A stretch of 64,000 nucleotides of DNA from Candidatus Nanoarchaeia archaeon (GCA_035289425.1 DATDXC010000002.1:474-64473); one strand, 5' to 3'. Positions 12,865-27,207 are shown, counted from the stretch's first letter. The notes: generated by a model from the sequence alone, not told the origin. Translations and numbers: made by a program.

Positions 12865-13248
12865 TTATATAACCTTATTTTGAATCAGATACGGCAAAAT
12901 CTTGTTTTTTATTGCAGGAGAAAGTATCGAAGTGTCATCTTTTTGCCCAAACCATCTGAACTCAACAATCTCTGACAGAGCCTGGACATCTCCCACAAGT
13001 TTTCCAGAATATAATTTTATCCTTACTGTCGTGTCAGTTCCCACCGCCTTATCTTCAAAATAGCCGATACATGAGATTTCATCAACCTTGCACCCATGTT
13101 CTTCCTTAATCTCCCTTTTGATACAGTCTATATCGCTTTCATTAGGCAGTGGCTTGCCGCCTGGCATTAGAAAAAGCGGCGCTGATTTCTTTTTGTTTAT
13201 GAGAAACTTTTTGTCTTGTATAGCCAGTAACCCAATCTTGTAAATCAT
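12865..13248 (-). CDS. Nudix hydrolase
   Basis: The Nudix box 'GGKPLPNESDIDCIKREIKEEHGCKV' fits the GX5EX7REUXEEXGU pattern. Confidence 0.7.
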   Translation of the reverse strand: MIYKIGLLAIQDKKFLINKKKSAPLFLMPGGKPLPNESDIDCIKREIKEEHGCKVDEISCIGYFEDKAVGTDTTVRIKLYSGKLVGDVQALSEIVEFRWFGQKDDTSILSPAIKNKILPYLIQNKVI

Positions 13249-15443
13249 GCGACTCCCCTGTCAAAATTTCCCTGGGTTGTCCCTTTTTTTAACATCGAAA
13301 TGTCCTGTTGCTTCTCCTCAATAATATTCTGGTACGCAGTAATTAAAGTGCTCGTATCCTTGGATAAGTCAAGGAGGAAATAACGGATCCCACCCTGCAG
13401 CAATTCCCGGACACCTTCAAAAGTGGCGATCGGCCTGGAATAGAGCATCTCAGTGTTCTTGCCGACAAGCCGCAGTGGAAAAGAATAGCCTTTCTCATCT
13501 TTAAGATCAGGATAGTTAAACCTGCCTTTGAAATGCATAACCGGGATTTGCCCATGTGCATAATAGATGATGTTCTTATTTTTTAGAGCAAGAACATCTT
13601 TGCACGAAAGCTCCGGAGATATTATGGGTAGGATACCTTTATTCAGCAAAGCAGAAATGCTCGCATCATTGAATGTGTTGAGGGAATATTTGCCATGTTT
13701 CTCCCCTTTAAAGGGCACGGAAAGCATTCCCCAATTCCCGATGCAGATACCCTCTGGCATAAGTTCATGGATTACATGCCCTGCTCTGATGACCTCTGCG
13801 TCACTCATTACAACAGGGGTATCCAGGAAAAATTTTGTGCCTATGCATAATTTCCGGGCCATCTTCACGTCAGGCGCAAATATATCATAGTATACAGCAT
13901 ACGGACCGAGTGCAGATGCTTCTTCAACCTGATCTAATGAATACACCTTGACAATCAACTTAGGTTCTCCATGGCATTCAATGCTCTCAAACTGTATTTC
14001 TTCTAGCTTAGATTGCCTCTGAGGGTTTATATGCTGTATGACTGCTTCATCGAGAGACAATCGCATCTGGTTGATTTCGCTGAATGGCATGAATGCTGCT
14101 GGATCAACCGAGAAAGACAGGAGCTTCCATTGTATCCCCACCTTTTTTGATTTTGCGAGGTAATTGAGCAGATCCTCCTTGGTGAATGGATTATTTTTTG
14201 CTTTTTCCAGATTGCATTTGGATGAAACAGATATATTTCCGCACCGCAATACAAGCGGCTTTCCCATCTCCCCTTCAGCTATAACCTCATATTCAGCAAG
14301 TGGAACGTCGAATGTTTGCTTCTCATGCTTCCGAGAGGTAATAAATACGGATGCACCTTCCCTGAAATGCCGTGATGGTATGCTAATCAAGCTCCCCCTC
14401 GGTGCATAATCATTTAAAACGCCATTAACCTGCATCTTGCTTACTACAAATCCTTCCATGCGGTTGCTGCCCTGATTCCAGAATCCGACACCATCTCCCT
14501 TCTTAAGAAGCTCGTAAATGCGGAGCTTGCCGTTTAGTACCTTTCCTAATAAAATTCCCCTATTCATGGGCATATCAGATCCTATGACTGATTTATTATT
14601 TGCAAAAAAGCCAGAGGTAAAATCCCGGTTGAAGTTAATTTTGACTCTATCTAGGTCTGCCTGGTTTGCCTTGGAAGCAGAAGGCAGGCTGTCAATCTGC
14701 TTTCGGTATAGCTTTGTGGCTGCAGCAACATACTCCGCACTCTTCATTCTGCCCTCTATTTTTACCGCATCTACACCAATCTCGGCTATCTTATCGACCC
14801 AGTTCGCCAGCATAAGGTCTTTAGGGCTGATCAGGTATCCTGCGTTGTTATACTGCTTCCGGCAGCTGCTGGCGCAAATCCCCCTATTGCCGCTTCGTTT
14901 CCCGATGAACGAAGAGATAAGGCATTGGCCTGAATATGAGATGCACAGATGGCCATGCACAAAAATCTCTAGTTTTACCTTAGTCCTGTTTCGTATCTCC
15001 CTAATATCATCCAGAGTTAATTCCCGTGCCAGCACAACCTGGTCTAAATCCCGGAATGCGTTGATACCATGGTAATTCATGAGGCTTGCCTGCGTAGATG
15101 CATGTATCCGGAGCCCTGGAAAGAACTTTCTGATGTAGGGAACGAAAAAGAGCTCCTGGATGATTACTGCATCTATTCCTGCAAGATATGCATCCTCCAA
15201 AGTCTTAAACCAATTCCCAATTTCCCTGTTATAAACCAGAGTATTCAAAGCAAAGTAGACCTTTACCTTGTTGTTGTGGGCAAGAGCTATTACTTCTTTT
15301 ATCTGGTCTTTAGTGAAGTTACCGGCTAGCTTCCGGGCATTGAACAGATGTCCTGATAAGTAGATTGCATCAGCCCCCGAGCAGATTGCCGCCTTGGTTG
15401 ATTCAAGGTCTCCTGCAGGAGCATTGAGTTCAATTTGGTGCAT
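13245..15443 (-). CDS. peptidase U32 family protein (RlhA/TrhP-like) with a long C-terminal extension
   Basis: The N-terminal region shows 'ELNAPAGDLESTKAAICSGADAIYLSG', 'KVYFALN' and 'GIDAVIIQ', the characteristic U32 motifs. The Cys cluster 'CISYSGQCL...CASSC' is present. Total length is 732 aa. Confidence 0.8.
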   Translation of the reverse strand: MHQIELNAPAGDLESTKAAICSGADAIYLSGHLFNARKLAGNFTKDQIKEVIALAHNNKVKVYFALNTLVYNREIGNWFKTLEDAYLAGIDAVIIQELFFVPYIRKFFPGLRIHASTQASLMNYHGINAFRDLDQVVLARELTLDDIREIRNRTKVKLEIFVHGHLCISYSGQCLISSFIGKRSGNRGICASSCRKQYNNAGYLISPKDLMLANWVDKIAEIGVDAVKIEGRMKSAEYVAAATKLYRKQIDSLPSASKANQADLDRVKINFNRDFTSGFFANNKSVIGSDMPMNRGILLGKVLNGKLRIYELLKKGDGVGFWNQGSNRMEGFVVSKMQVNGVLNDYAPRGSLISIPSRHFREGASVFITSRKHEKQTFDVPLAEYEVIAEGEMGKPLVLRCGNISVSSKCNLEKAKNNPFTKEDLLNYLAKSKKVGIQWKLLSFSVDPAAFMPFSEINQMRLSLDEAVIQHINPQRQSKLEEIQFESIECHGEPKLIVKVYSLDQVEEASALGPYAVYYDIFAPDVKMARKLCIGTKFFLDTPVVMSDAEVIRAGHVIHELMPEGICIGNWGMLSVPFKGEKHGKYSLNTFNDASISALLNKGILPIISPELSCKDVLALKNKNIIYYAHGQIPVMHFKGRFNYPDLKDEKGYSFPLRLVGKNTEMLYSRPIATFEGVRELLQGGIRYFLLDLSKDTSTLITAYQNIIEEKQQDISMLKKGTTQGNFDRGVA

Positions 15444-15553
15444 ACCCTAGGAAGAAATATTCATATATTTAAGTCTACGCATTCTTAATGGTTGCCCAGA
15501 AATAATCTTTTTTCGGCAATTTGTCAGTACAATGATTGGAAATTTTTCAGAAA

Positions 15554-16126
15554 TCAGGTAAATCCGTTCTTTTTTATATACGTGATCAGATCGTCTGAGA
15601 CGCATATCTTTCCCTGCTCCACCATATAGCGGAATGGCAGTATGATTGATTCTCCCTTATCAATCTCTATTTCGATCTCATCCACAAAATCAAGTTTCTG
15701 GAAAGGTGTGCCCCCCGTTATCCGATAAGCTGCCAGGACCGCATTGTCAGTCGGCATCTGTTTGTCCCCTAAATTTCTGGTTTGGAGCCCAAGCGATCCA
15801 AGCTCCTTCATTGTCCTGTTCTGGGGAGGATTATCGCCTAAAATGCCGCCAAAGACAAGGACATCAAACGTATCTGCAGGGGAAAGTTTTTTTCCTGCTC
15901 CCGCATCCATCAGGCATATTCTTTTTCCTTTCAGCTCTGTCTTGATCAACTCTGACAGTCGCTCTGCATACACTTTACCAAAAGAAGATAATTTTGATCT
16001 TTCATGCTTCTCTCGCACATTGGTGAAAATCAGATTATTTTTTCCCACCATTTTTGATAGGTGTTTATATTCGATAAGGCTCCACGGAAAAAGTTTCGGA
16101 TCCAGGTGTTCGATGAGGTATTTCAC
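15554..16126 (-). CDS. SPOUT-class methyltransferase, Sfm1/DUF431 family
   Basis: Closely resembles yeast Sfm1: 'MKYLIEHLDPKLFPWSLIEY', 'VLVFGGILGDNPPQNRT', 'LGDKQMPTDNAV' and 'ILPFRYM'. Confidence 0.65.
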   Translation of the reverse strand: MKYLIEHLDPKLFPWSLIEYKHLSKMVGKNNLIFTNVREKHERSKLSSFGKVYAERLSELIKTELKGKRICLMDAGAGKKLSPADTFDVLVFGGILGDNPPQNRTMKELGSLGLQTRNLGDKQMPTDNAVLAAYRITGGTPFQKLDFVDEIEIEIDKGESIILPFRYMVEQGKICVSDDLITYIKKNGFT

Positions 16127-17154
16127 AGTGCCAGCTCCACCATGGTTTCTATATGGGGCGTCTGCGGGAAAAGATCAAACAGGGCAACGCTTTTCATTTT
16201 GTATTCTTTGAATTTTGTCAGGTCCTTCTTCAGCTGAACTATGTTGCACGAGATATATATAATAACTTTTGGCTTTACTTCTTTTAACGCTTGGATTACT
16301 TTCTGGTCCATGCCAGAACGGGGAGGGTCTAGTATCACGATTGAACCATGTTGCATCTTTTTTATCTGGCGTGCGTCAGCTTCTATTACACTTCCATTGG
16401 AAATATGCTTTATATTGAGGAACGCTGCCTTCACACTCAGGGGAGCATTCTCAACAATTATTACACTTTTGAAAAGATCCGCATTCAAAATGCCAAAGCA
16501 TCCGACTCCCCCATAGACATCAAGCAGGCATGGCTGTGGCGCATACTTCTTGAGGATGGTATGGCAGTGTTGGTGCATCATTGTGGCAACTTCTGAATTG
16601 TTCTGGAAAAAGGATTGGCTATGGTAATAAAATGGAATGCCATTAAACTCTTCTAGCAGGTAAGGGCTTCCCTTTAAGACAACATAATCATCAGATATGC
16701 TTTCAGAACCATATGCGATCAGCACATTGTCTGCTGTTGATATCTTGGCAAAATCCTGTATGATGGACATCGCCGAAGCATCTTTGCATACAAAAGAGAT
16801 ACTACAGGTCTTCGTTGCCCGTATGACTACAAACCGCATTGAATCAGGGAAATTATCTTTAAAAAAATTCCTTGCTTCCTGCAATAGATCATTGATCCTT
16901 TTATCTGAAATCACGCATTCATCAGTCTGCACAAAGCCATTAATCCCCCTTAGCCCAAGCTGGCCCTTGCTGACTATGAAGTCCATGCGGTTACGATAAT
17001 AGTATTCATGGCCTGCATATACCTTGATATCCTTGGAGCCGGTAGCATGCTCCACTCTGTTGCGCTTGTTCTCAAGCTGAAGTGAGTAGGGTATATGCTG
17101 TGCAGTGCACCCATTGCATTTTTTAAAATATTTACACAATGGCTTAATTATCAT
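16123..17154 (-). CDS. TrmA/RlmD-family (uracil-C5) RNA methyltransferase
   Basis: Has an N-terminal Cys cluster 'CKYFKKCNGCTAQH' for an [4Fe-4S]. C-terminal SAM motifs follow ('LLDVYGGVGCFGI', 'ILDPPRSG'), and the C-terminus 'FDLFPQTPHIE' is typical of RumA/TrmA-like enzymes. Confidence 0.75.
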   Translation of the reverse strand: MIIKPLCKYFKKCNGCTAQHIPYSLQLENKRNRVEHATGSKDIKVYAGHEYYYRNRMDFIVSKGQLGLRGINGFVQTDECVISDKRINDLLQEARNFFKDNFPDSMRFVVIRATKTCSISFVCKDASAMSIIQDFAKISTADNVLIAYGSESISDDYVVLKGSPYLLEEFNGIPFYYHSQSFFQNNSEVATMMHQHCHTILKKYAPQPCLLDVYGGVGCFGILNADLFKSVIIVENAPLSVKAAFLNIKHISNGSVIEADARQIKKMQHGSIVILDPPRSGMDQKVIQALKEVKPKVIIYISCNIVQLKKDLTKFKEYKMKSVALFDLFPQTPHIETMVELAL

Positions 17155-17205
17155 AGAATCTAGTTTTCCGGTACTAATTTAAATATGTTCCGTGTGTAAT
17201 GCCCT

Positions 17206-17348
17206 ATCGAAAAGGTTGCCATCCTATGTGAAGTGCCTCAGATAACAATACCAACTGACAATGGGGAGGCTCCAGTCGGGAAATGTCAGTATTTGTCTGG
17301 AAGATACAAGCACTGAGCCTGATGGCAACCTGCGAAGCACTTTTCAAT
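17206..17348. ncRNA. candidate structured ncRNA (copy B of a repeated element; strand undetermined)
   Basis: Nested helices are present. The 10-bp helix GGTTGCCATC/GATGGCAACC (17214-17223 with 17321-17330) is perfect. An outer helix ATCGAAAAG/CTTTTCAAT and a core hairpin AACTGACA...TGTCAGT enclose 'ATGGGGAGGCTCCAGTCGGGAAA'. The core is ~80% identical to the element at 23277-23443. Confidence 0.35.
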
Positions 17349-17418
17349 GTCACCTTATACAGAGTAGCATTTTAGCTATTATGCAACAATTTCATATATA
17401 AAAAGAAAAAATTATTGA

Positions 17419-18066
17419 TTAAGCACAAGAGCCTTCTTCGTACCAGCTGGTGTTCCTATCTTCACAAGCAAAACACCCATTGATATAGGTCATATTTCTA
17501 TTGTTGCACACTGGTTGGCTTTCATTACTGCAATCATTAGGTCTGGGTCTTGGGCAGTGAGTTTTTTCAATCGATACATTTCCCGATGTGAAATTTGAAG
17601 CGATTGCAGTACACTCCTGCTTACATGATAACGAATCCTCAATTGCCGCTTTCTTGCAATTCAATTTATCATCCTGGCAAGTTCTGGTGCAATTTCTGTA
17701 ATCAGCATAGGATTCCTGTCTGTCAATGCCTTTCGCAGCAGAACAATTTCTTCTGCATTCCTGAATAAGATTATTTTTTTCCTGTTTGGTTAAATTTGAG
17801 GATAGATTAAGTTCACAGCCTGCTGTACAGCTATTAAAGGTATCCCGGTTGATTTGAGATAGATTCTTCCAATCTCCTCTGCATTCATTTCTGCATTCAA
17901 ATGAGACATCATTGCATGCTCTCATATCGAGCATCTTGTTTGTTGAGCAGTTTTTCTTGCATTCATTAAATATTTCTCTTTGTTCAGGGCTCAAACCATT
18001 TAAGGCTACTACAATTACAGATGCTAATGCTAATCCTAAGATGACCAATGATAGTTTTTTATTCAT
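17419..18066 (-). CDS. secreted cysteine-rich protein with many N-glycosylation sequons and a C-terminal Kazal-like domain
   Basis: The start is taken at the internal Met ('MNKKLSLVILGLALASVIVVA' signal peptide, preceded by GGGGGA). There are 10 N-x-S/T sequons and repeated 'ECxxNC' units. The C-terminus 'QPVCNNRNMTYINGCFAC' fits the Kazal core (PVC..DG.TY.N.C...AC). The called ORF extends to 18162. Confidence 0.55.
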   Translation of the reverse strand: MNKKLSLVILGLALASVIVVALNGLSPEQREIFNECKKNCSTNKMLDMRACNDVSFECRNECRGDWKNLSQINRDTFNSCTAGCELNLSSNLTKQEKNNLIQECRRNCSAAKGIDRQESYADYRNCTRTCQDDKLNCKKAAIEDSLSCKQECTAIASNFTSGNVSIEKTHCPRPRPNDCSNESQPVCNNRNMTYINGCFACEDRNTSWYEEGSCA

Positions 18067-18276
18067 ATAGATTCCCCCAAAGTTATGACTGGGAAGTGTA
18101 GAATCTTTATAAACATTCTCGAGTTTGGATATGTATATCAGACGAGAAATATTTTTAGTCACGTTTTAACGACAAACATCAGTTATTCTTTCATCTGCTT
18201 ATTGTATCTCCACTGCCCGAACAATACCCAATACAATGCAAATAAACCAATAACTAAAAGTATGAGGAGGAGACCA

Positions 18277-19323
18277 TTACTTGCCATTTTTCAATGCATC
18301 AACCAACTGCTTCATCTGATTCTTGGTGCCGATAGTTATCCTGATATAGCCATCCAGCATGGGATCAGAGCTTCGGTCCCTGACCAAAACCGCCTTCTCC
18401 CGCAGCAGAGCAACCACCTCCTTAGTTTTGCTGCCAAACTTTGCCAGAAAGAAATTTGCATCTGATGGTACAGTCTTAATTTTCATTTTTTTGAATTCTT
18501 CCAGCACATATCGCTTTCCATTCTCTATCTCTTTAGTATACCAGGTGATGTAATCCTTATCTCCCAATGCTGCAATGCCTGCAGCAACAGCAGCGCAGTT
18601 GACGCTATAAGGAGAAAGCGCCTTTCCGATAGATGCTATGTTTGCGCTATTTGACACTACATACCCTAACCGCAAGCCGCCCATGCCAAAAGCCTTGGAG
18701 AATGTTTGAGTGACGATCAGGTTATCATAGGTATCAATGAGATCCAAGCAGCTGTTGCCGCTGAATTGGTTGTAAGCCTCATCAATCATCACGATGCTAT
18801 TCCGCGCTTTCTCAAGGATGGCAATAATGTCTTTCCGTGTAATAGATGTTCCGGTGGGATTGTTTGGATTGCACAATATCACCAACTTCGTCTTAGGTGA
18901 GATCTTTTTCAAGACTTTCTGAGTAGGGAAAGAAAATGATTGGGTGTATAACACCTCAATAATCTTGGCAGCCGCAACCTGTGCGTAGAACTTGAACATC
19001 GCAAAGGTAGGCATCGGAATAATGACCTCATCCCCTTTGCCCACATAGGTCTGCATTATGACTGAGATAGCTTCATCAGTTGCATTGGTAGTCAAAACCT
19101 GTTCAACCGGCTTACCAAGATATCCAGCCAGGGTAGCACGTAATTTAGAATATTCTGGATATGATGCAATATCCTCATCCCTGAGATTTCTCAAAGCTTC
19201 CAGAACTTTTGGGCTTGGTCCTACCGTATTCTCATTGAAATCAAGCCTCAGCAGGCCTTTCCTGCCGCTTGTAGGCGGCTTGTATTCGTCCATCTCGGTA
19301 ACATTCTTCTTTGGTTCTATCAT
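18277..19323 (-). CDS. hisC: histidinol-phosphate aminotransferase
   Basis: Has 'LRLDFNENTVGPSP', 'LCNPNNPTG' and a PLP-lysine region 'TFSKAFGMGGLRLGY'. It is adjacent to hisD. Confidence 0.85.
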   Translation of the reverse strand: MIEPKKNVTEMDEYKPPTSGRKGLLRLDFNENTVGPSPKVLEALRNLRDEDIASYPEYSKLRATLAGYLGKPVEQVLTTNATDEAISVIMQTYVGKGDEVIIPMPTFAMFKFYAQVAAAKIIEVLYTQSFSFPTQKVLKKISPKTKLVILCNPNNPTGTSITRKDIIAILEKARNSIVMIDEAYNQFSGNSCLDLIDTYDNLIVTQTFSKAFGMGGLRLGYVVSNSANIASIGKALSPYSVNCAAVAAGIAALGDKDYITWYTKEIENGKRYVLEEFKKMKIKTVPSDANFFLAKFGSKTKEVVALLREKAVLVRDRSSDPMLDGYIRITIGTKNQMKQLVDALKNGK

Positions 19324-20555
19324 CTTGATTCTACAGACCTCGCGTGGGCTTCGAGCCCTTCAGCTCGTGCGATAACACAGATAGTTTTCTTCAATCCAGC
19401 CAATCCTCCCTTAGTGAGTTTCTGCACAGAGGGCATCTTGACAAAATCAAGAACCGATAATCCAGCTCTATAACGAGCTGCTCCTAAGGTGGGAAGCACA
19501 TGGCTCGGTCCTGCTGCATAGTCTCCTGCTGCCTCACAGCTGTATCTCCCTACAAAGATGGCACCGGCATTCTTTACTTTGCTCAGATATCTCTCTTCCA
19601 TCAGTTCAAGATGCTCGGGAGCTCTTTCATTTATGAAATCAAAGGCTTCGTCAACATTCTGCGCAATAACGATAGCGCTATTTTTCCGTATAGATTCAGC
19701 CGCAATATCCTTGGTAGGTAGTTTCCTAAGTTGTTTCTGCAATTCGGCTTCAACAGAAGAAGCTAGTTTTCTGTTGGTCGTTACTAAAATTGCTGATGCC
19801 ATTCTATCGTGTTCAGCTTGTGCCAGCATATCAGCTGCAATCATTGCCGGATCCCCCCTCCCTGCAAATATCATGATTTCAGTTGGTCCTGCAATGAAAT
19901 CCACACCAACATCTCCATATACTAATTTTTTTGCTGCGGTAACATATATGTTGCCTGGACCAACAATTTTATCCACCTTAGGTATGGTCTGTGTCCCATA
20001 CGCCATTGCAGCAATAGCCTGAGCTCCGCCAACTTTGTAGATTGCTGATGCTCCGGCGATATCAGCTGCAACGAGAATTGCGTAGTTGCCTGGCTTAGGA
20101 GGGCTGCAGAGGACGATCTCTCTGACTCCTGCAACTTTGGCCGGAATGACTGTCATCAGGACAGTAGAAGGTAATGGATATGCTCCGGCAGGCACATAAC
20201 AGCCGACCCTATCCAGCGGAATGACCTGCTGTCCAACCGTAACCCCTTTCCGGATTGTGGTCATCCATGATTTAGGCATTTGCTTTTGCGCATAACTTCG
20301 GATATTCTTTGCAGCATCTAAGAGAGCCCGTACCACCTTAGCATCAGTCTTGGCATACGCTTCCTTGATCTCCTTCGGCGAGACTTTCATAGTATTTTTT
20401 GATAGGTTAAAACCATCATACAATTTAGTGTACTTGATCACTGCCGAATCGCCAAAGGTCTTTACTTCAGAAACAACCGGTTTTATCCTTACGAGTATGT
20501 CGTTGAGGGCAATGCCTTTGTTTTTAACAGAAAAATCTTTGCAGGTTGTTATCAT
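19320..20555 (-). CDS. hisD: histidinol dehydrogenase
   Basis: Has '[16 protein letters not shown]', '[29 protein letters not shown]' and 'AQAEHD', the signature HisD motifs. Length is 411 aa. Confidence 0.9.
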
Positions 20556-21418
20556 GGTATTACCTTGTTAAGGGGATATTCAACAATACCAGAAGCTCCT
20601 GCATCCTTGAGCTGAGGAATCAAGTCTCTCACAACCTTCTCATCTATAATAGTGTTCACATCAACCCAGCTCGGATCAGAAAGCTCGGAAATGGTTGGCT
20701 TCTGCAGGGCAGGAAGTGCCTTAAGGACTTTATCAAGATCCTTCTTCCGCACATTCATCATAAGGCCGACTTTTTCTTCTGCATTGATAGCTCCTTGCAA
20801 CAGCATGGCAATATTTTTTATTTTCTTCTGCTTTGCAGCATCCTTCCATGACCCCTTGTTTGCGATGAGCCTGGTAGTTGATTCCAACAGTGTATCGATT
20901 ATCTTCAGATTATTGGCACGCAAACTTGAGCCGGTTTCAGTGATCTCCACAATAGCGTCAGCAAGTGTCGGAGGCTTTACTTCAGTGGCTCCCCATGAGA
21001 ATTCAACCTTTGCATCCACCTTATTCTTTTTCAAATACTTCTTGGTCAGGTTGACTGCCTCAGTCGCTATCCGTTTTCCCTGCAGATCCTTCACTGACCG
21101 AATGTTGCTGTTTTCAGGCGCAGCTAAAACCCACTTCACCTTCCCTAAACCCCTTTTAGCGTACACCAGATCTGCAACTTCAATGACATCAGAGCTGTTT
21201 TCCTCAATCCAGTCCTTGCCTGTTAGTCCACAATCAAGGACTCCTTCTTCAACATATCGGGACATTTCCTGGGCCCTGATGAGCATGCATGCTATCTGAG
21301 GATCATCTATCTCAGGAAAATAGCTTCGTCCATTGATGTCTATGCTGAATCCTGCTTTCTTGAACAGCTTGACCGTACTATCCTGTAAACTGCCCTTGGG
21401 TATGCCTAGTTTTATCAT
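20552..21418 (-). CDS. hisG: ATP phosphoribosyltransferase (long form)
   Basis: Starts with '[12 protein letters not shown]' and contains '[12 protein letters not shown]' and '[14 protein letters not shown]', with a C-terminal regulatory domain. Length is 288 aa. Confidence 0.85.
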
Positions 21419-21774
21419 TTGTACACCTTCTGCGGATCAAATACCTTTCTGCCCACAATCTTTATATTTTTTCCATCCACTTTCCTAAAAAAGCATGACT
21501 GGAATCCTTCATGGCATGCTGCGCCGCCTACTTGTTCAATTTTTATCAGTACTGCATCCTCATCACAATCGATGTATATCTCTTTTACTTTTTGGACATT
21601 TCCCGAGGTCTCTCCTTTTAGCCAGAGCTTGTTCCTCGACCTGCTGTAATACCACACCTTGCCAGTTTCCAATGTCTTTTTCCAGGCTTCCTCATTCATA
21701 TAAGCAAGCATGAGTACCTTCCCAGTCTTATAATCCTGAGCTATTGCAGGTATTAACCCGTTCTTGAAGTTCAT
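21415..21774 (-). CDS. hisI: phosphoribosyl-AMP cyclohydrolase
   Basis: Has '[25 protein letters not shown]', '[19 protein letters not shown]' and 'IDCDEDAVL'. The start is taken at the internal Met; the called ORF extends to 21852. Confidence 0.8.
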
Positions 21775-21954
21775 TTTAACCACTGAGTCAGGCTGGTATA
21801 TAACTTTTTTGTACCGCAATAATGCGGGTATATGTGTATTGCAACCAATCAAAGCAGCAAAAGAAAGCTAAACCATACCCTTCTGAGACAGAGGCACTTA
21901 AAATTTTTTCCTTACCAAAACCTTTATAAACCAAATACAAATTCTGCAAAGGTA

Positions 21955-22545
21955 ATGGTAGAGGATAAGACTAAGATAAAGAAAAAGAAGTGGGTAGATA
22001 TAATTGCGCCTAAGGCGTTCAATAATGCTTCTGTAGGACAGGTTACGGTTGAGGAATCCGGGACAGTTGTTGGAAGGACCGTAACTGCCAATTTGATGAG
22101 CCTGACCGGAGATTTTAAGCGGCAGAACACAGAAATAATCCTTAAGATTACCAGTCTTGCCGACGGAAAAGCTATAACCGAATTTCAGGGTTATAAGGTT
22201 GTGCCGTCTTCCATGAGGCGATTGGTGAGGAGGGGCAAAGAGAAGATCGAAAGCACCTTTTCTGTAGTATCTTTGGAAGGCCAAACCCTCATCATTAAGC
22301 TGTTTATCATCACCCGTTTTGCTACCAAACGATCTGTATTAGCATCATTGCGAAAAACAACTGAGCTAGCTCTCAGAAGAGAGGTTGCAAAATGTTCATT
22401 GGAGAAGCTAATCGAAGAGCTGCTTTCACGCAACCTCCAGAAGACGCTTTCCAAGGAAATTACCAAGATATATCCCTGCAAGATTCTTGAAATCAAGGAG
22501 CTTAGGGTGAAAGGCGCAGCAGCACCCGTAAAAGAAAGTATTTAA
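21955..22545 (+). CDS. rps3ae: 30S ribosomal protein S3Ae (S1e)
   Basis: Contains 'KKKKWVDIIAPKAFNNASVGQTV', which is typical of S3Ae. The start is taken at the internal Met (ATG at 21955); the called ORF begins at 21832. Confidence 0.8.
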   Translation: MVEDKTKIKKKKWVDIIAPKAFNNASVGQVTVEESGTVVGRTVTANLMSLTGDFKRQNTEIILKITSLADGKAITEFQGYKVVPSSMRRLVRRGKEKIESTFSVVSLEGQTLIIKLFIITRFATKRSVLASLRKTTELALRREVAKCSLEKLIEELLSRNLQKTLSKEITKIYPCKILEIKELRVKGAAAPVKESI

Positions 22546-22605
22546 TACTTAAATAATAATTTTAAAAAGAATGTTAATGGTTATTTTCTTATCAGAGGTG
22601 GAAAA

Positions 22606-23208
22606 ATGACACATGAAGTACCTAAGTTGCCATATGCATATAATGCCTTAGAGCCATACATAGATGAGAAAACCATGATGATACATCATGATAAGCACCA
22701 TGCTGCCTATGTGGCTAAACTTAATGCAGCGCTGGAAAAGCACTCAAATCTCCAGAACAGGCCAGCAGAAGACCTGCTTAAGGATCTTTCTGCAATACCT
22801 GAAGATATCAGGACCGCTATAAAGAATCATGGCGGCGGCCATGCGAACCATTCGTTTTTCTGGGCTTTGCTGAAGAAGGATGTGAAGTGCAGCGGTGAGA
22901 TTGAAAAAGCCATAACTAAGACATTTGGCGGTTTTGATAAGTTCAAGGAGCAGTTTTCAGCTGCTGCAGCAAACCAGTTCGGCTCTGGCTGGGCATGGCT
23001 TGTTGCCAATAAGGGAAAGCTTGAAATAATTTCCACACCAAACCAAGACTCGCCATTGAGTCAGGGAAAAACGCCTATTGTAGGCATTGATGTATGGGAG
23101 CATGCGTACTATCTGAAATATCAGAACAGAAGGCCCGAGTACATCGAAGCATTCTTCAACGTAATCAATTGGGATAAGGTCAATGAGAACCTGAAGAAAG
23201 CAAAATAA
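22606..23208 (+). CDS. sod: Fe/Mn superoxide dismutase
   Basis: Has '[32 protein letters not shown]' and '[15 protein letters not shown]', the canonical SOD motifs. Confidence 0.9.
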
Positions 23209-23276
23209 GCATCTTTTTCTTTTTTTTGCAAAATTTTTTTCGCTTACGTAAAATCCTTTCTTGCATTAGCAATAAG

Positions 23277-23443
23277 AGGCTCTGTAGAAAATATAGGTTA
23301 GCAGCCTTAAGTCAAACCTAATCCAATCAAATAGCGAACTGACAAGAGGGATGGCTCCTTCGGAGAATGTCAGTTATGGTACTTCAGAATGAGGGGTTTG
23401 AAGCTGCTAACCCGAATGATAATGAGACTTTCTACAGAGCCGC
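23277..23443. ncRNA. candidate structured ncRNA (copy A of a repeated element; strand undetermined, + favoured by a UUCG-type loop)
   Basis: There is a perfect 13-bp outer helix GGCTCTGTAGAAA/TTTCTACAGAGCC (23278-23290 with 23429-23441) and a perfect 10-bp helix GGTTAGCAGC/GCTGCTAACC. A 7-bp helix TCAAACC/GGTTTGA and a core hairpin AACTGACA-[AGAGGGATGGCTCCTTCGGAGAA]-TGTCAGTT are also present. Confidence 0.4.
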
Positions 23444-23499
23444 AATAAGAATAAAATTTAAATACTGGAGCTAATTTTCCATCAGTTGAAAAACACGTT

Positions 23500-24789
23500 A
23501 TGGAACCTAAAAAATTCTTGTTTATTTCTTGGGATGGATTAATAGGCGACATAGCTTGGCAGATCGCTAAGGAAGGCCATGCAGTCAAATATTATATAAA
23601 GAGTGCTGAGGAAAAAGATGTGGCTGACGGTTTTGTACCAAAAGTTGATTCTTGGGAGCCTGAAGTTGACTGGGCAGATGTCATTGTCTTTGATGATGTG
23701 CTTGGTCAGGGCAAGATAGCAGCAGAGCTCAGAAAAAAAGGCAAAAAAGTGATTGGAGGGACTCCCTACACCGATAAGCTCGAGGATGACCGTGCTTTCG
23801 GCCAGGAAGAGCTGAAAAAAGTGGGAATTTCTATCATCCCCTATTCTGATTTCACTTCTTTTGATGAGGCTATAGAATTCGTCGAGAAGAATCCTGGTAG
23901 GTATGTCATCAAGCCATCAGGCCAGGCGCAGAACCTTAAGGGCCTGTTGTTTGTCGGAGAAGATGAGGTAGGCAAGGACGTGCTCCAGGTATTGCATGAC
24001 TACCAGAAAGCATGGGCAAAAAAAATTCCCCAGTTCCAGCTTCAGAAGAAAATTTCAGGCGTTGAAGTGGCAGTAGGAGCTTTCTTCAACGGCAAAGAGT
24101 TCGTGTATCCCATCAATGTAAATTTTGAGCACAAAAAGCTATTTCCCGGAAACTTAGGACCATCAACCGGAGAGATGGGAACTACCATGTATTGGTCAGG
24201 TTCCAACAAGATTTTCAGCAACACCCTGAAAAAGTTCGAAGCAAAGCTAGCAGAAGAGGGATATGTGGGCTATATAGACCTCAATTGCATAGTGAACAGC
24301 AACGGCATCTATCCGCTTGAGTTCACTGCCCGTTTCGGATATCCAACTATAAGCATACAGCAGGAAGGCATGATAAATGGCATCGGCACTTTCTTCTATG
24401 AACTTGCAAATGGAATCGCAACCTCATTAAAAGTCAAGAGCGGATTCCAGATTGGTATACGGATTGTAGTGCCTCCATTTCCGTTTACTGACAAGGAAAC
24501 ATTCAAAGTCAAGTCTAAAGACTCAGTGATATACTTTACGAAACCGACTGATGGGGTGCATATCGAGGACGTCAAGCTGGTCAATGATGAATGGGTGGTT
24601 ACCGGTACTGCCGGTGTTGTATTGATTGTTTGCGGGACAGGATCAACGATGAAGCAAGCCCAGGCCCATGCTTATAATCGCATCAAGAATATCATCATTC
24701 CCCATATGTACTATCGGACGGATATTGGAGACAGATGGTATGAGGATTCTGATAAGCTCCATTCATGGGGTTATTTAAGAGAACTCTAA
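23500..24789 (+). CDS. purD: phosphoribosylamine-glycine ligase (divergent PurD, ATP-grasp)
   Basis: 'GPSTGEMG' corresponds to PurD 'GPNTGGMG'. 'LEFTARFGYPT' corresponds to 'EFNCRFGDPE', and the C-terminus 'VVTGTAGVVLIVCGTGSTMKQAQAHAY' matches the PurD C-domain. The N-domain is divergent. Confidence 0.7.
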   Translation: MEPKKFLFISWDGLIGDIAWQIAKEGHAVKYYIKSAEEKDVADGFVPKVDSWEPEVDWADVIVFDDVLGQGKIAAELRKKGKKVIGGTPYTDKLEDDRAFGQEELKKVGISIIPYSDFTSFDEAIEFVEKNPGRYVIKPSGQAQNLKGLLFVGEDEVGKDVLQVLHDYQKAWAKKIPQFQLQKKISGVEVAVGAFFNGKEFVYPINVNFEHKKLFPGNLGPSTGEMGTTMYWSGSNKIFSNTLKKFEAKLAEEGYVGYIDLNCIVNSNGIYPLEFTARFGYPTISIQQEGMINGIGTFFYELANGIATSLKVKSGFQIGIRIVVPPFPFTDKETFKVKSKDSVIYFTKPTDGVHIEDVKLVNDEWVVTGTAGVVLIVCGTGSTMKQAQAHAYNRIKNIIIPHMYYRTDIGDRWYEDSDKLHSWGYLREL

Positions 24790-25158
24790 CTAATCTCCGG
24801 GATGGCAAACTCATTTTTAGAAGGTCCTATAATGATTTATGAAAAGTCTCATGCAGTTTCTTATGGTACTTTTCTGCCTGTTCAACACTCATAGCTTCTA
24901 ATTCTTCTCTTGTAGATAGTTTCATGTATATCACCAGTTGATATGGAATGGTGTCCTCCTTATTAGCTTTTGGAACTGAGTGCGGGTGAAAATGGGGTAA
25001 AATAGGTTATAATAACTATTTTCAAACAACAGTTTAGTGCAAATATTTTATTAAGAAAAGCCAGAACACATACGCTCCTAACAAGAGAATCGCCAGCTTG
25101 ATGAGCCAAAATAATAGCCAGAATCTGGTTTGCGGCTTCTTAAGCCACTTGACGAACT

Positions 25159-25779
25159 TCATTTTTTCTTTTTCTTGATGCGTTTCATCCTGAACGTGTT
25201 TTCCCTTTCAACCTCCTGAAGACGCATCTGGATGAATGCCTTGGTATGATCCATACGGGGGATAACCTCAAATTCAAGTGCATTTACCCTCCTTTTTGTC
25301 TTTTCGATTTCCCGCAGAAGTTTCCGCATGCTTGCCTCGACTTCCGCTGCCCTGATAATTTTTTCGACGACCTTTTCGTATCCTTCAGCAGCTTCATCAA
25401 CCGCAGCTGATGTGTATACCCCATATCCCCTCTCTAATCCGGACTTCTGCAGCTGTATCTCGCCGATTGAAGGAACAACAACTCCCATGATATTTTTTCG
25501 GCCAACCTCAATTTCAGGTATCTGTGCCACAGCCAGGGCTATTGACTTTATCTTTAGATCAGATTCTATGATGCGCGCCATGTTCATCTTTTCGATTGCC
25601 TGCTTGTAATCTTCAGTGATCTCACTGCGAAGATTCTTTACCTTCTTAAGGATCTCAAAAAAGTCAAGGATAAGGCCGTCGCGCTTTTTCTTGAGAAGAT
25701 TATACCCATCTTTAGCTAGCTTGATGCGCTTCTTAAGCTCCATCAATTCGCTTCGGGTGGGTTTAATATTTTCTGCCAT
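25159..25779 (-). CDS. atpD: A-type ATP synthase subunit D
   Basis: Starts with 'IKPTRSELMELKKRIKLAKDGYNLLKKKRDGLI', typical of V/A-ATPase subunit D. It is the last gene of the operon. Confidence 0.85.
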   Translation of the reverse strand: MAENIKPTRSELMELKKRIKLAKDGYNLLKKKRDGLILDFFEILKKVKNLRSEITEDYKQAIEKMNMARIIESDLKIKSIALAVAQIPEIEVGRKNIMGVVVPSIGEIQLQKSGLERGYGVYTSAAVDEAAEGYEKVVEKIIRAAEVEASMRKLLREIEKTKRRVNALEFEVIPRMDHTKAFIQMRLQEVERENTFRMKRIKKKKK

Positions 25780-25833
25780 TTGACGAGCTAAGCTAATTTA
25801 ACAATAATTTCTTTTTCAGTGTACTTGATGAGC

Positions 25834-27207
25834 TCATGCAGGAGCACTTTTGTAATATTTCTTCTTTAACTCAGGAGACAGCCGACCAAGCTCTTCAGGA
25901 GGTATTGACGAGAACAAATTCCACCCTATTTGAAGCGTGTCCAGGATGCCTCTGTCTTCATCCCTTCCCTGGGTGACGAATTTCTCCTCAAATGCTTTTG
26001 CAAAATGTAGCAGTCTTTTATCGCGGGTGGATAACGCTTCTTCTCCAACAATTGCCACCAGCCCACGAAGATCCCTGCCTTCTGCATATCCTGCATACAA
26101 CTGATCGCTGACTGCCTTGTGATCTTCCCTTGTCTTTGTTGCTCCAATGCCTAAGTTCATAAGTCTTGAGAGGCTGGGTAGCACATCAATAGGCGGATAA
26201 ATGCCATTGCGGTGCAGTTCTCTGGACAAAACTATCTGTCCTTCGGTGATGTATCCGGTGAGATCCGGTATCGGATGGGTTATATCATCACCCATCATCG
26301 TAAGGATGGGTATCTGGGTGATTGAACCTTTCTTGCCTTTGATGACGCCTGCCCGTTCATAAATTTGCGCAAGATCAGTGTACATATATCCTGGGTATCC
26401 TCTTCTTCCAGGAACTTCCTCTCTTGCAGCGCCAATTTCTCGGAGACTTTCACAATAGTTAGTCATGTCAGTCAAGATAACTAAAACATGGTAGTCTTTC
26501 TCAAATGCAAGATATTCTGCTGCAGTTAAGGCCATACGCGGCGTCACGATCCTCTCCACAGCAGGATCATCTGCCAGATTAAGGAACACTATGGCTCTCG
26601 ACAGAGCTCCTGTCTTTTCGAAGTCCTTGATGAAGTATTGTGCTTCTTCATTGGTAATGCCCATGGCGGCAAATACAACAACGAAGTTTTCTCCTTTTCC
26701 CAAGACCCTGGCTTGTCTGGCCATCTGGAGCGCAATCTCGTTATGAGGCAGGCCTGATCCTGAAAATATGGGCAGTTTCTGTCCCCTGACGAGGGTATTG
26801 GTAGCATCTATGGTCGAAATTCCTGATTGGATGAAATCAGATGGCGAAGCTCTGGAACAAGGGTTGATGGCAGCACCAATAATGTCCATCCTTTTTTCTG
26901 GAATAAGCTCTGCTTTGCCGTCAATGGGTTTTCCTGCCCCATTAAAAATCCTGCCAAGCATGCTTGCAGAAACACCTAACTTCAGCGTGTCTCCCATAAA
27001 CTTTACTTTGGCATCCTTGCCTATACCTGCTGTTCCTTCAAATATCTGGACAACGACCAAATCTTCTGAAGTATCGAGAACCTGGCCATTCTTGATTTCA
27101 CCAGAATCAAGCCTGATTTGAACGATGTCTGCATATCCAACAGGTTCAGTCTTCTCAAGAAATATCAAAGGTCCTGCTATCCGCGTGATTGTTTTGTATT
27201 CTTTCAT
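25834..27207 (-). CDS. atpB: A-type ATP synthase subunit B
   Basis: A 457 aa protein with '[12 protein letters not shown]' and a P-loop-like 'GSGLPHNE'. It sits immediately downstream of atpA. Confidence 0.95.

Follow-up and report, generated by a model that had tools for sequence, protein, structure and literature searches.

A dispersed, structured intergenic repeat of DPANN archaea is very probably a MITE that inserts beside promoters

Two intergenic regions in a 64,000-nt stretch of Candidatus Nanoarchaeia archaeon DNA (GCA_035289425.1 DATDXC010000002.1:474-64473; hereafter the window) raise the question of what kind of element keeps its helices by compensatory base change. An earlier sequence-only reading had proposed that these regions, at 17.2 kb and 23.3 kb, hold two related elements with a common core, and that they represent a functional structured RNA and not a DNA repeat or MITE (miniature inverted-repeat transposable element). 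Both core-bearing elements are genuinely present, each on the + strand. Their structure is kept by compensatory change as that reading had claimed, and this conservation extends to about 100 more copies and to helices it had not seen. The exclusion of mobile DNA did not survive, however, as inverted repeats, 9-bp duplications, a non-coding sequence and dispersed copies are the hallmarks of a MITE. From the inverted repeats, the fixed-length duplication, the small size, the absence of coding capacity and a dispersal that includes identical copies, we conclude with considerable confidence that the family is a MITE, a non-coding element of 156-168 bp derived from a DDE-type insertion sequence (IS), most likely of the IS5 family, IS903 type.

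The core shared by the two copies is 37 nt long and, with its leading A, lies at 17253-17290 and 23337-23374; the window holds these 2 matches, against 0.00 expected from shuffles. The labels of the sequence-only reading were reversed, such that its copy A is the 23.3-kb copy and its copy B the 17.2-kb copy. The 10-bp helix that it described is perfect in each copy, with three differing positions and every change compensated. Its outer helix is a perfect 13 bp at 23.3 kb, however the one given as about 9 bp at 17.2 kb is poor. A search with the family profile, the nhmmer profile of our alignment A2, found no third copy in the window. The features of the two copies, with helices numbered P1 to P5 from the ends inward and promoter motifs named for the TFB-recognition element (BRE) and the TATA box, are as follows.

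23278-23441, + strand: intact MITE copy, 164 bp, with the rod-like fold P1-P5 (nhmmer family-profile E = 3.6e-37)
23278-23290, + strand: left terminal inverted repeat GGCTCTGTAGAAA, the 5' arm of P1 (perfect pairing with 23429-23441)
23429-23441, + strand: right terminal inverted repeat TTTCTACAGAGCC, the 3' arm of P1
23269-23277, no strand: left 9-bp target-site duplication GCAATAAGA (the same 9-mer flanks both element ends)
23442-23450, no strand: right 9-bp target-site duplication GCAATAAGA
23296-23305, + strand: 5' arm of P2, GGTTAGCAGC (partner 23403-23412)
23403-23412, + strand: 3' arm of P2, GCTGCTAACC
23338-23374, + strand: conserved 37-nt core (P4, ACTGACA/TGTCAGT, around a G-rich asymmetric loop and the mini-hairpin P5, CTCC-TTC-GGAG)
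23414-23425, + strand: 3'-side-only mini-hairpin GA-AT-GATA-AT-GA (read from alignment A2)
23453-23464, + strand: BRE/TATA-like motif (AA..TTTAAATA) of the purD-like gene (begins 2 nt past the duplication; ATG at 23500)
17201-17354, + strand: decayed copy, approximate ends (nhmmer match 17201-17335, E = 3.6e-21)
17254-17290, + strand: 37-nt core of the decayed copy
17178-17189, - strand: BRE/TATA-like motif AA-CA-TATTTAAA of the open reading frame (ORF) 16123-17154 (8/10 motif score)

An intact insertion, the 23.3-kb copy lies between the terminator of a superoxide dismutase (SOD) gene and the promoter of the purD-like gene. Its ends were set by a search for inverted repeats and duplications, where the repeats match at 14/16 positions (13 bp perfect) and the duplication at 9/9. 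The element forms a rod whose outer helix is 13 bp long; inside it come helices of 10 bp and 7-8 bp and then a central hairpin. It contains no ORF of transposase size. The 3'-side mini-hairpin combines a 2-bp stem with two G.A juxtapositions and a loop of the GNNA/GNRA type, and reads GAGCGAAAGCGA in canonical copies. We place the MITE between a terminator and the next promoter because a T-rich run (CATCTTTTTCTTTTTTTTGC, 23209-23240) resembling an archaeal oligo-T terminator lies right behind the SOD stop codon. A public 35-aa gene call at 23367-23474 (L001 2868-2975) covers the MITE's right half and continues across the duplication and the TATA box; this ORF is probably spurious.

The 17.2-kb copy is an older insertion with eroded ends, located beside the promoter of a methyltransferase gene. 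Its terminal repeats are degenerate, and we found neither P1 nor a recognisable duplication at this locus. It retains P2, P3 with its tandem G.A, P4, P5 and a GCGAAGC mini-hairpin, and its P2 is a perfect 10 bp, in which GGTTGCCATC (17214-17223) pairs with GATGGCAACC (17321-17330). The motif at 17178-17189 adjoins the left end of this copy at the spacing usual for the family.

The family was collected in two ways. A genome set came from a scan with the core pattern in one genome per species, which yielded 71 loci, about 66 of them archaeal. An independent metagenome set was selected by the inverted repeat and P2 only, and yielded 66 loci. Approximately 100 relatives with the same ends are present in DPANN genomes and metagenomes. 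Leftward of the core, copies remain homologous for about 60-70 nt, and rightward for 65-90 nt. Since homology stops at those distances on either side, the unit is about 165 bp; individual elements measure 156-168 bp. The nine bases outside the GGCT...AGCC ends are direct repeats. In the genome set, 29 copies have both a P1 of at least 12/14 and a duplication of at least 8/9, with 18 duplications perfect and 11 at 8/9. The metagenome set contributes 46 elements with a partner inverted repeat (at least 12/14), and here the duplication is perfect in 22 and at 8/9 in 7. This gives 40 perfect 9-bp duplications (18 + 22), with a sequence unlike at each locus.

Dispersal can be seen within single genomes. 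Three copies in one genome (L011, L016 and L031) show 100 % identity across 165-168 bp and have unrelated flanks, and the identity among such copies ends at the inverted repeats. Several genomes carry four to five loci each, and several copies are located at contig ends. The sequence-only reading had set near-identical copies with intact terminal repeats, as in a MITE, against structural covariation. When we looked for such copies we found them within genomes, with covariation between subfamilies, and for this reason the dichotomy between a structured element and a MITE is false.

The metagenome set also holds truncated, nested and hybrid copies. In L087 (minus strand, from 2031) and L093 the left half is like the 23.3-kb copy (GGCTCTGTAGAAAATATAGGTTAGCAGC...) and the right half like the 17.2-kb copy (...GATGGCAACCTGCGAAGCA...TTTTCAATGACACCC), a hybrid arrangement suggesting that subfamilies may have recombined inside the conserved core. 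Longer variants of 217-310 bp are the same element enlarged by hairpin-forming inserts, which lie in P2', between P5 and P4', or within the loop of P5 (L027 2684-2921, to be compared with L040 5136-5299, and L088, L101, L104, L110, L117, L121, L136, L145 and L147); these inserts may be nested small palindromic elements. A 205-bp element, L025 7489-7693, has the inverted repeat GGCTTCCATGAAAAT, the P2 sequence GGGTTAGCAGC and the perfect duplication TCAAAATCA around an unrelated GC-rich interior. In another subfamily (L028 and L062, also L010, L014, L017, L021, L046 and L069) the same core is framed by a different terminal sequence (GTAATACTTCAGCTTT...). The promoter spacing is unchanged in L062, which carries a repeat of about 9 bp, and several members of this subfamily are without a matching right end. 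In a GC-rich Nanoarchaeota genome, copies at L022, L045 and L049 (three copies in 8 kb) comprise an inner module of about 115-125 nt without the GGCT inverted repeat and without the side hairpin, each closed by a different compensated stem of 10-13 bp. No family copy was found in the viral-contig, phage and plasmid collections.

Across the family the architecture is constant. P1 spans 13-16 bp and P2 10-12 bp, followed by P3, often with tandem G.A, and by a variable, part-paired loop. Further inward lie P4 (7-9 bp) and an asymmetric G-rich loop with the mini-hairpin P5, and the hairpin present on the 3' side only takes the form GA-NN-GNRA-NN-GA. Folding of the 23.3-kb copy gave z-scores of -5.4 (+ strand) and -7.2 (- strand) as RNA and -4.85 as DNA, and the 17.2-kb copy gave -1.3 to -1.4, which alone is not significant. 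In an alignment of 30 family members, 90.6 % of cells are paired versus 76 % in shuffles, 28/43 pairs show changes on both sides, and the covariation score is 0.404 versus 0.146, a value reached in 0/500 shuffles, with slid controls at 0.06-0.09. RNAalifold was also run on the family alignment. Compensated variation occurs in 10/13 pairs of P1 and double changes in 8/10 pairs of P2, and a pair in the stem of the side hairpin covaries (GC in 13 versus AU in 8).

P4 is invariant in the 30-member set only because it served as the search pattern. Elements found via their ends alone contain the core in 33/33 cases, and in these both P4 and P5 covary: P4 occurs as ACTGACA, GCTGACA, ACCGACA, ACTGCCA, GCAGACA, GTCGAC, AGTGACA and AGCGG, with the other arm compensating each. 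Since covariation holds in copies retrieved through the ends alone, the fold is under selection.

The family also shares a target site. We reconstructed 53 independent pre-insertion sites and counted the motif AAnnTTTAWAWA where at least 8/10 specified positions matched. The motif lies 2 nt (±1 nt) beyond the duplication in 48/53 sites, compared with a background of 1.85 % at random positions in the same loci. It is found on the right at 28 sites, on the left at 18, on both sides at 2 and on neither at 5; it is one-sided in 46/53, which rules out a palindromic target site. The exact offset is present at 44/56 independent insertion sites, and the offset profile has a sharp single peak at offset 11 (44/112 flanks versus about 2 at other offsets). 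In 26/42 cases the start codon of an ORF follows 21-27 nt past the motif, the spacing expected of archaeal promoters for leaderless mRNAs. The insertion point is 2 nt upstream of the BRE-like AA and about 38-47 nt upstream of leaderless start codons. Insertions lie upstream of the promoter in either orientation, with flanking genes oriented in every combination. The rule, seen in the flanks of loci L006-L149, holds for both window copies, at 23442-23464 and 17178-17200; in the promoter motif downstream of the 23.3-kb copy, the TTTAAATA part is 23457-23464. Selection for harmless sites cannot account for a precision of about 1 nt, and promoter targeting is probably intrinsic.

The best candidate for a parent is an IS of the IS903 type. 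The inverted repeats of the family (GGCTCTGTAGAAAA, GGCTCTGTTGAAAA, GGCTGCGTTGAAAA and others) are similar to GGCTTTGTTGAATAAATC, the end of IS903; on enterobacterial plasmids we verified this sequence at the end of an IS5-family transposase gene. The IS903 end and the MITE repeats have 11-13 of 14-15 bases in common, varying by subfamily, a similarity so short that it cannot assign a family alone. ISL3-type ends also start with GGCTCT, but ISL3-type elements give 8-bp duplications. The MITE and IS903/IS903B are alike in the 9-bp duplication, which IS903B leaves as direct repeats (PMC10513040), in the start of the repeat (GGCT.TGT.GAA.A) and in a cut-and-paste logic with the transposase acting in trans. 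They differ in that the MITE has no transposase gene inside it, nearby or among the loci examined, in its DPANN archaeal host, in a body that is a long covarying rod-like fold, and in a target that is a one-sided BRE/TATA motif. IS5/IS903 parentage is what we infer from these likenesses of sequence. We propose that a transposase supplied in trans, presumably of this type, would bind the 13-16-bp terminal inverted repeats (GGCTCTGT.GAAA...) and cut the target with a 9-bp stagger, the repair of which would leave the 9-bp duplication. Selection on the fold would then serve the propagation or tolerability of the element itself, as single-stranded DNA (ssDNA), as a cruciform or in a read-through transcript, and not a host RNA gene.

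Several observations weigh against this reading. About 1 Mb of loci yielded neither an autonomous IS bearing these inverted repeats nor a transposase like that of IS903. A tblastn search with the IS903 transposase in all loci (about 8 kb each) and the window gave nothing better than E = 0.14, and two weak matches (L059 and window 46.3 kb) were dropped because they fall in other ORFs or on the strand opposite them. A scan of all loci for inverted repeats paired at a distance of 120-3000 bp turned up MITEs only. Among 136 loci, matches to the inverted repeat plus P2 were MITEs, truncated MITEs or chance, with no autonomous partner; the metagenome scan with these two features brought up MITEs and truncated copies, plus a single chance match in GC-rich coding DNA (L109, L142, L146). 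No empty site is shown for the window loci, as synteny is lost in the nearest relatives: the closest relatives of the purD-like gene (81 % identity) have other neighbours, and all contigs of the same population carry the element. Covariation reaches the interior helices P3, P4 and P5 and the mini-hairpin, which a transposase is not expected to read, and the module also occurs with another terminal repeat (GTAATAC..., L028 and L062) or with no recognisable inverted repeat. There are also mild strand-specific features, namely a conserved tandem G.A (16/30 members in P3), a GNRA-type loop, and an excess of G.U over A.C (48 vs 15 cells), although 21/48 of the G.U cells fall in two doubtful pairs. 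Together, the interior covariation, the alternative ends and the strand features suggest that the fold does more than form a pair of transposase sites.

One explanation, which we regard as possible but clearly less probable than a simple MITE, is that the element carries a functional single-stranded module, RNA or ssDNA, of which the P2-P5 fold is the active part. Such a module might tether integration to promoter-bound TBP (TATA-binding protein) and TFB (transcription factor B), serve upstream of the promoter as an insulator or terminator, or work as a small RNA. It would explain why every interior helix covaries, also in the ends-found copies that all keep the core, why the module recurs with a second terminal repeat or without an inverted repeat but with strongly covarying closing stems, and why the decayed 17.2-kb copy kept P2-P5 perfectly despite its lost ends; the G.U excess and the tandem G.A point the same way. 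So does the core: across 56 distinct cores, position 10 mirrors 27 in 56/56, 9 mirrors 28 in 50/56 and 8 mirrors 29 in 56/56, and pairs 18:28 and 19:27 are Watson-Crick (positions 8-11, 18-20 and 26-29 are window 23345-23348, 23355-23357 and 23363-23366). These identities, which reflect few independent events, are compatible with base triples, namely G.G-C and A.A-T for the + strand or C+.G-C and U.A-U for the - strand, and also with 10:19 as an alternative helix. On the other hand, no internal BRE/TATA promoter motif was seen in the element, which sits upstream of promoters and outside transcripts, with mixed orientation both to the promoter (28:18) and among the flanking genes. The two strands fold equally well (-60.8 vs -60.1 kcal/mol), Watson-Crick pairs make up nearly all of the pairing, as they would in a DNA palindrome, and L025 joins the same inverted repeats and P2 to a different interior. 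More specifically, the fold could be an active RNA or ssDNA module, possibly with a triplex core of three purine- or pyrimidine-motif triples, that directs or licenses integration exactly upstream of BRE/TATA promoters. We speculate on this with little confidence; if true, a promoter-homing transposon that depends on a structured nucleic acid would be a mode not described in archaea. In a weaker version, homing would be intrinsic to the transposase, through sequence recognition or tethering by TBP/TFB, and the fold would serve another purpose.

A free-standing family of structured non-coding RNA genes, in which the end repeats are the closing helix of the RNA, is very unlikely. The strong covariation, RNA-like motifs such as the GNRA-type loop and tandem G.A, and the different compensated closing stems of the GC-rich Nanoarchaeota copies that have no inverted repeats are what such genes could show. 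However, at least 58 copies have locus-specific 9-bp direct repeats outside the closing helix, and these duplications refute the claim that the family is not mobile DNA. Identical copies dispersed in one genome and the truncated, nested and hybrid copies are also at odds with an RNA gene, as is the flanking TATA motif, which faces outward, with no conserved promoter aimed into the element at a fixed distance. The sequence-only reading had matched the element to none of tRNA, SRP RNA, RNase P, C/D or H/ACA guides and hammerhead motifs. In a comparison with Rfam the whole window gave no match at gathering thresholds, and both regions gave only chance-level matches at E <=10. We give almost no weight to a site for another kind of single-strand recombination or transposition, such as an attC site of an integron or a palindromic element of the IS200/IS605 type. 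The likeness to attC lies in imperfect palindromes whose structure is conserved while their sequence varies, and GCGAAAGC and GCGAAGC mini-hairpins are very stable in ssDNA. The motif order is reversed, however, reading GTT...AAC (GGTTAGC...GCTAACC) and not RYYYAAC...GTTRRRY, and the copies are solitary beside housekeeping genes and promoters instead of in cassette arrays. IS200/IS605-type elements have no target duplication and no inverted repeats, whereas the duplication here is a fixed 9 bp. Hammerhead, kink-turn, H/ACA, bulge-helix-bulge and attC readings of the core and junctions were ruled out by eye, as the defining motifs are absent. A MITE thus remains our preferred explanation.

The hosts appear to be DPANN archaea. 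The purD-like protein of the window is identical to one from a genome labelled Nanoarchaeota, and its relatives at 75-81 % identity come from Woesearchaeota, Nanoarchaeota and other DPANN. Many loci (L007, L011-L013, L016, L018, L020, L024, L025, L029, L031 and others) belong to European Nucleotide Archive (ENA) 'binchicken' genomes titled 'uncultured Methanosarcinales archaeon'. This label looks wrong on sequence grounds, because the phosphoenolpyruvate (PEP) carboxylase at one of these loci, L044, has named relatives that are all DPANN-labelled (mostly Woesearchaeota and Nanoarchaeota, with Pacearchaeota and Aenigmarchaeota, at 64-70 % identity). On this basis a spread across Methanosarcinales and DPANN was ruled out, and we treat the family as DPANN-restricted and common in Woesearchaeota-like archaea. 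DPANN genomes, woesearchaeal ones included, are reported to be rich in MITEs, and one woesearchaeal genome to be among the most MITE-dense in archaea, with 105 per Mb (PMC11602168). This MITE family, its fold and its promoter-proximal target are undescribed in the literature searched, in which the sequence lists of that census were not compared. A MITE is a known kind of element, and this family appears to be undescribed.

The genes around the window copies, from 13245 to 27207, are those of a DPANN archaeon with biosynthetic genes. They include a U32 peptidase, an SFM1-like and a tRNA U5-like methyltransferase, a minus-strand hisC-hisD-hisG-hisI cluster, ribosomal protein S3Ae, the Fe/Mn SOD, the purD-like ligase and subunits of an A-type ATPase. 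The ORF at 17419-18162 has no Pfam match.

Elements with some of these properties are known elsewhere. The bacterial structured MITEs Correia/NEMIS, ERIC/IRU, RUP, BOX and RPE form long hairpins with pairing preserved between subfamilies. Like the DPANN family they are 100-200 bp long and intergenic, with inverted repeats, short duplications and many copies per genome. They mostly act co-transcribed within operons, whereas the DPANN family is archaeal, sits upstream of promoters and combines a conserved, asymmetric core with a side hairpin of GNRA type. The family is like other archaeal MITEs (Sulfolobus SM1-4, those of haloarchaea and those of the DPANN census, PMC11602168) in being non-autonomous and located in archaeal intergenic regions. 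Its placement is similar to that of Ty3, Ty1, Tf1 and the P element, which insert at a fixed or narrow position upstream of the transcription start and leave the core promoter intact. Those retrotransposons and P elements are tethered by transcription factors, whereas the evidence for the MITE family is positional only.

Our results show that compensatory changes by themselves are not enough to tell an RNA gene and a palindromic mobile element apart, and that inverted repeats and a target duplication should be checked first. They also define a MITE family that is widespread among Woesearchaeota-like DPANN archaea, a group with mobile elements that have hardly been characterised. Deep structural covariation and promoter-proximal homing set this family above an ordinary repeat in interest, and the depth of covariation in helices other than the terminal one raises the question of why a MITE needs a fold. 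If targeting is intrinsic, it would be a natural 'safe-haven' strategy for very compact genomes, and insertions of the family could be used to mark promoters computationally in uncultured archaea.

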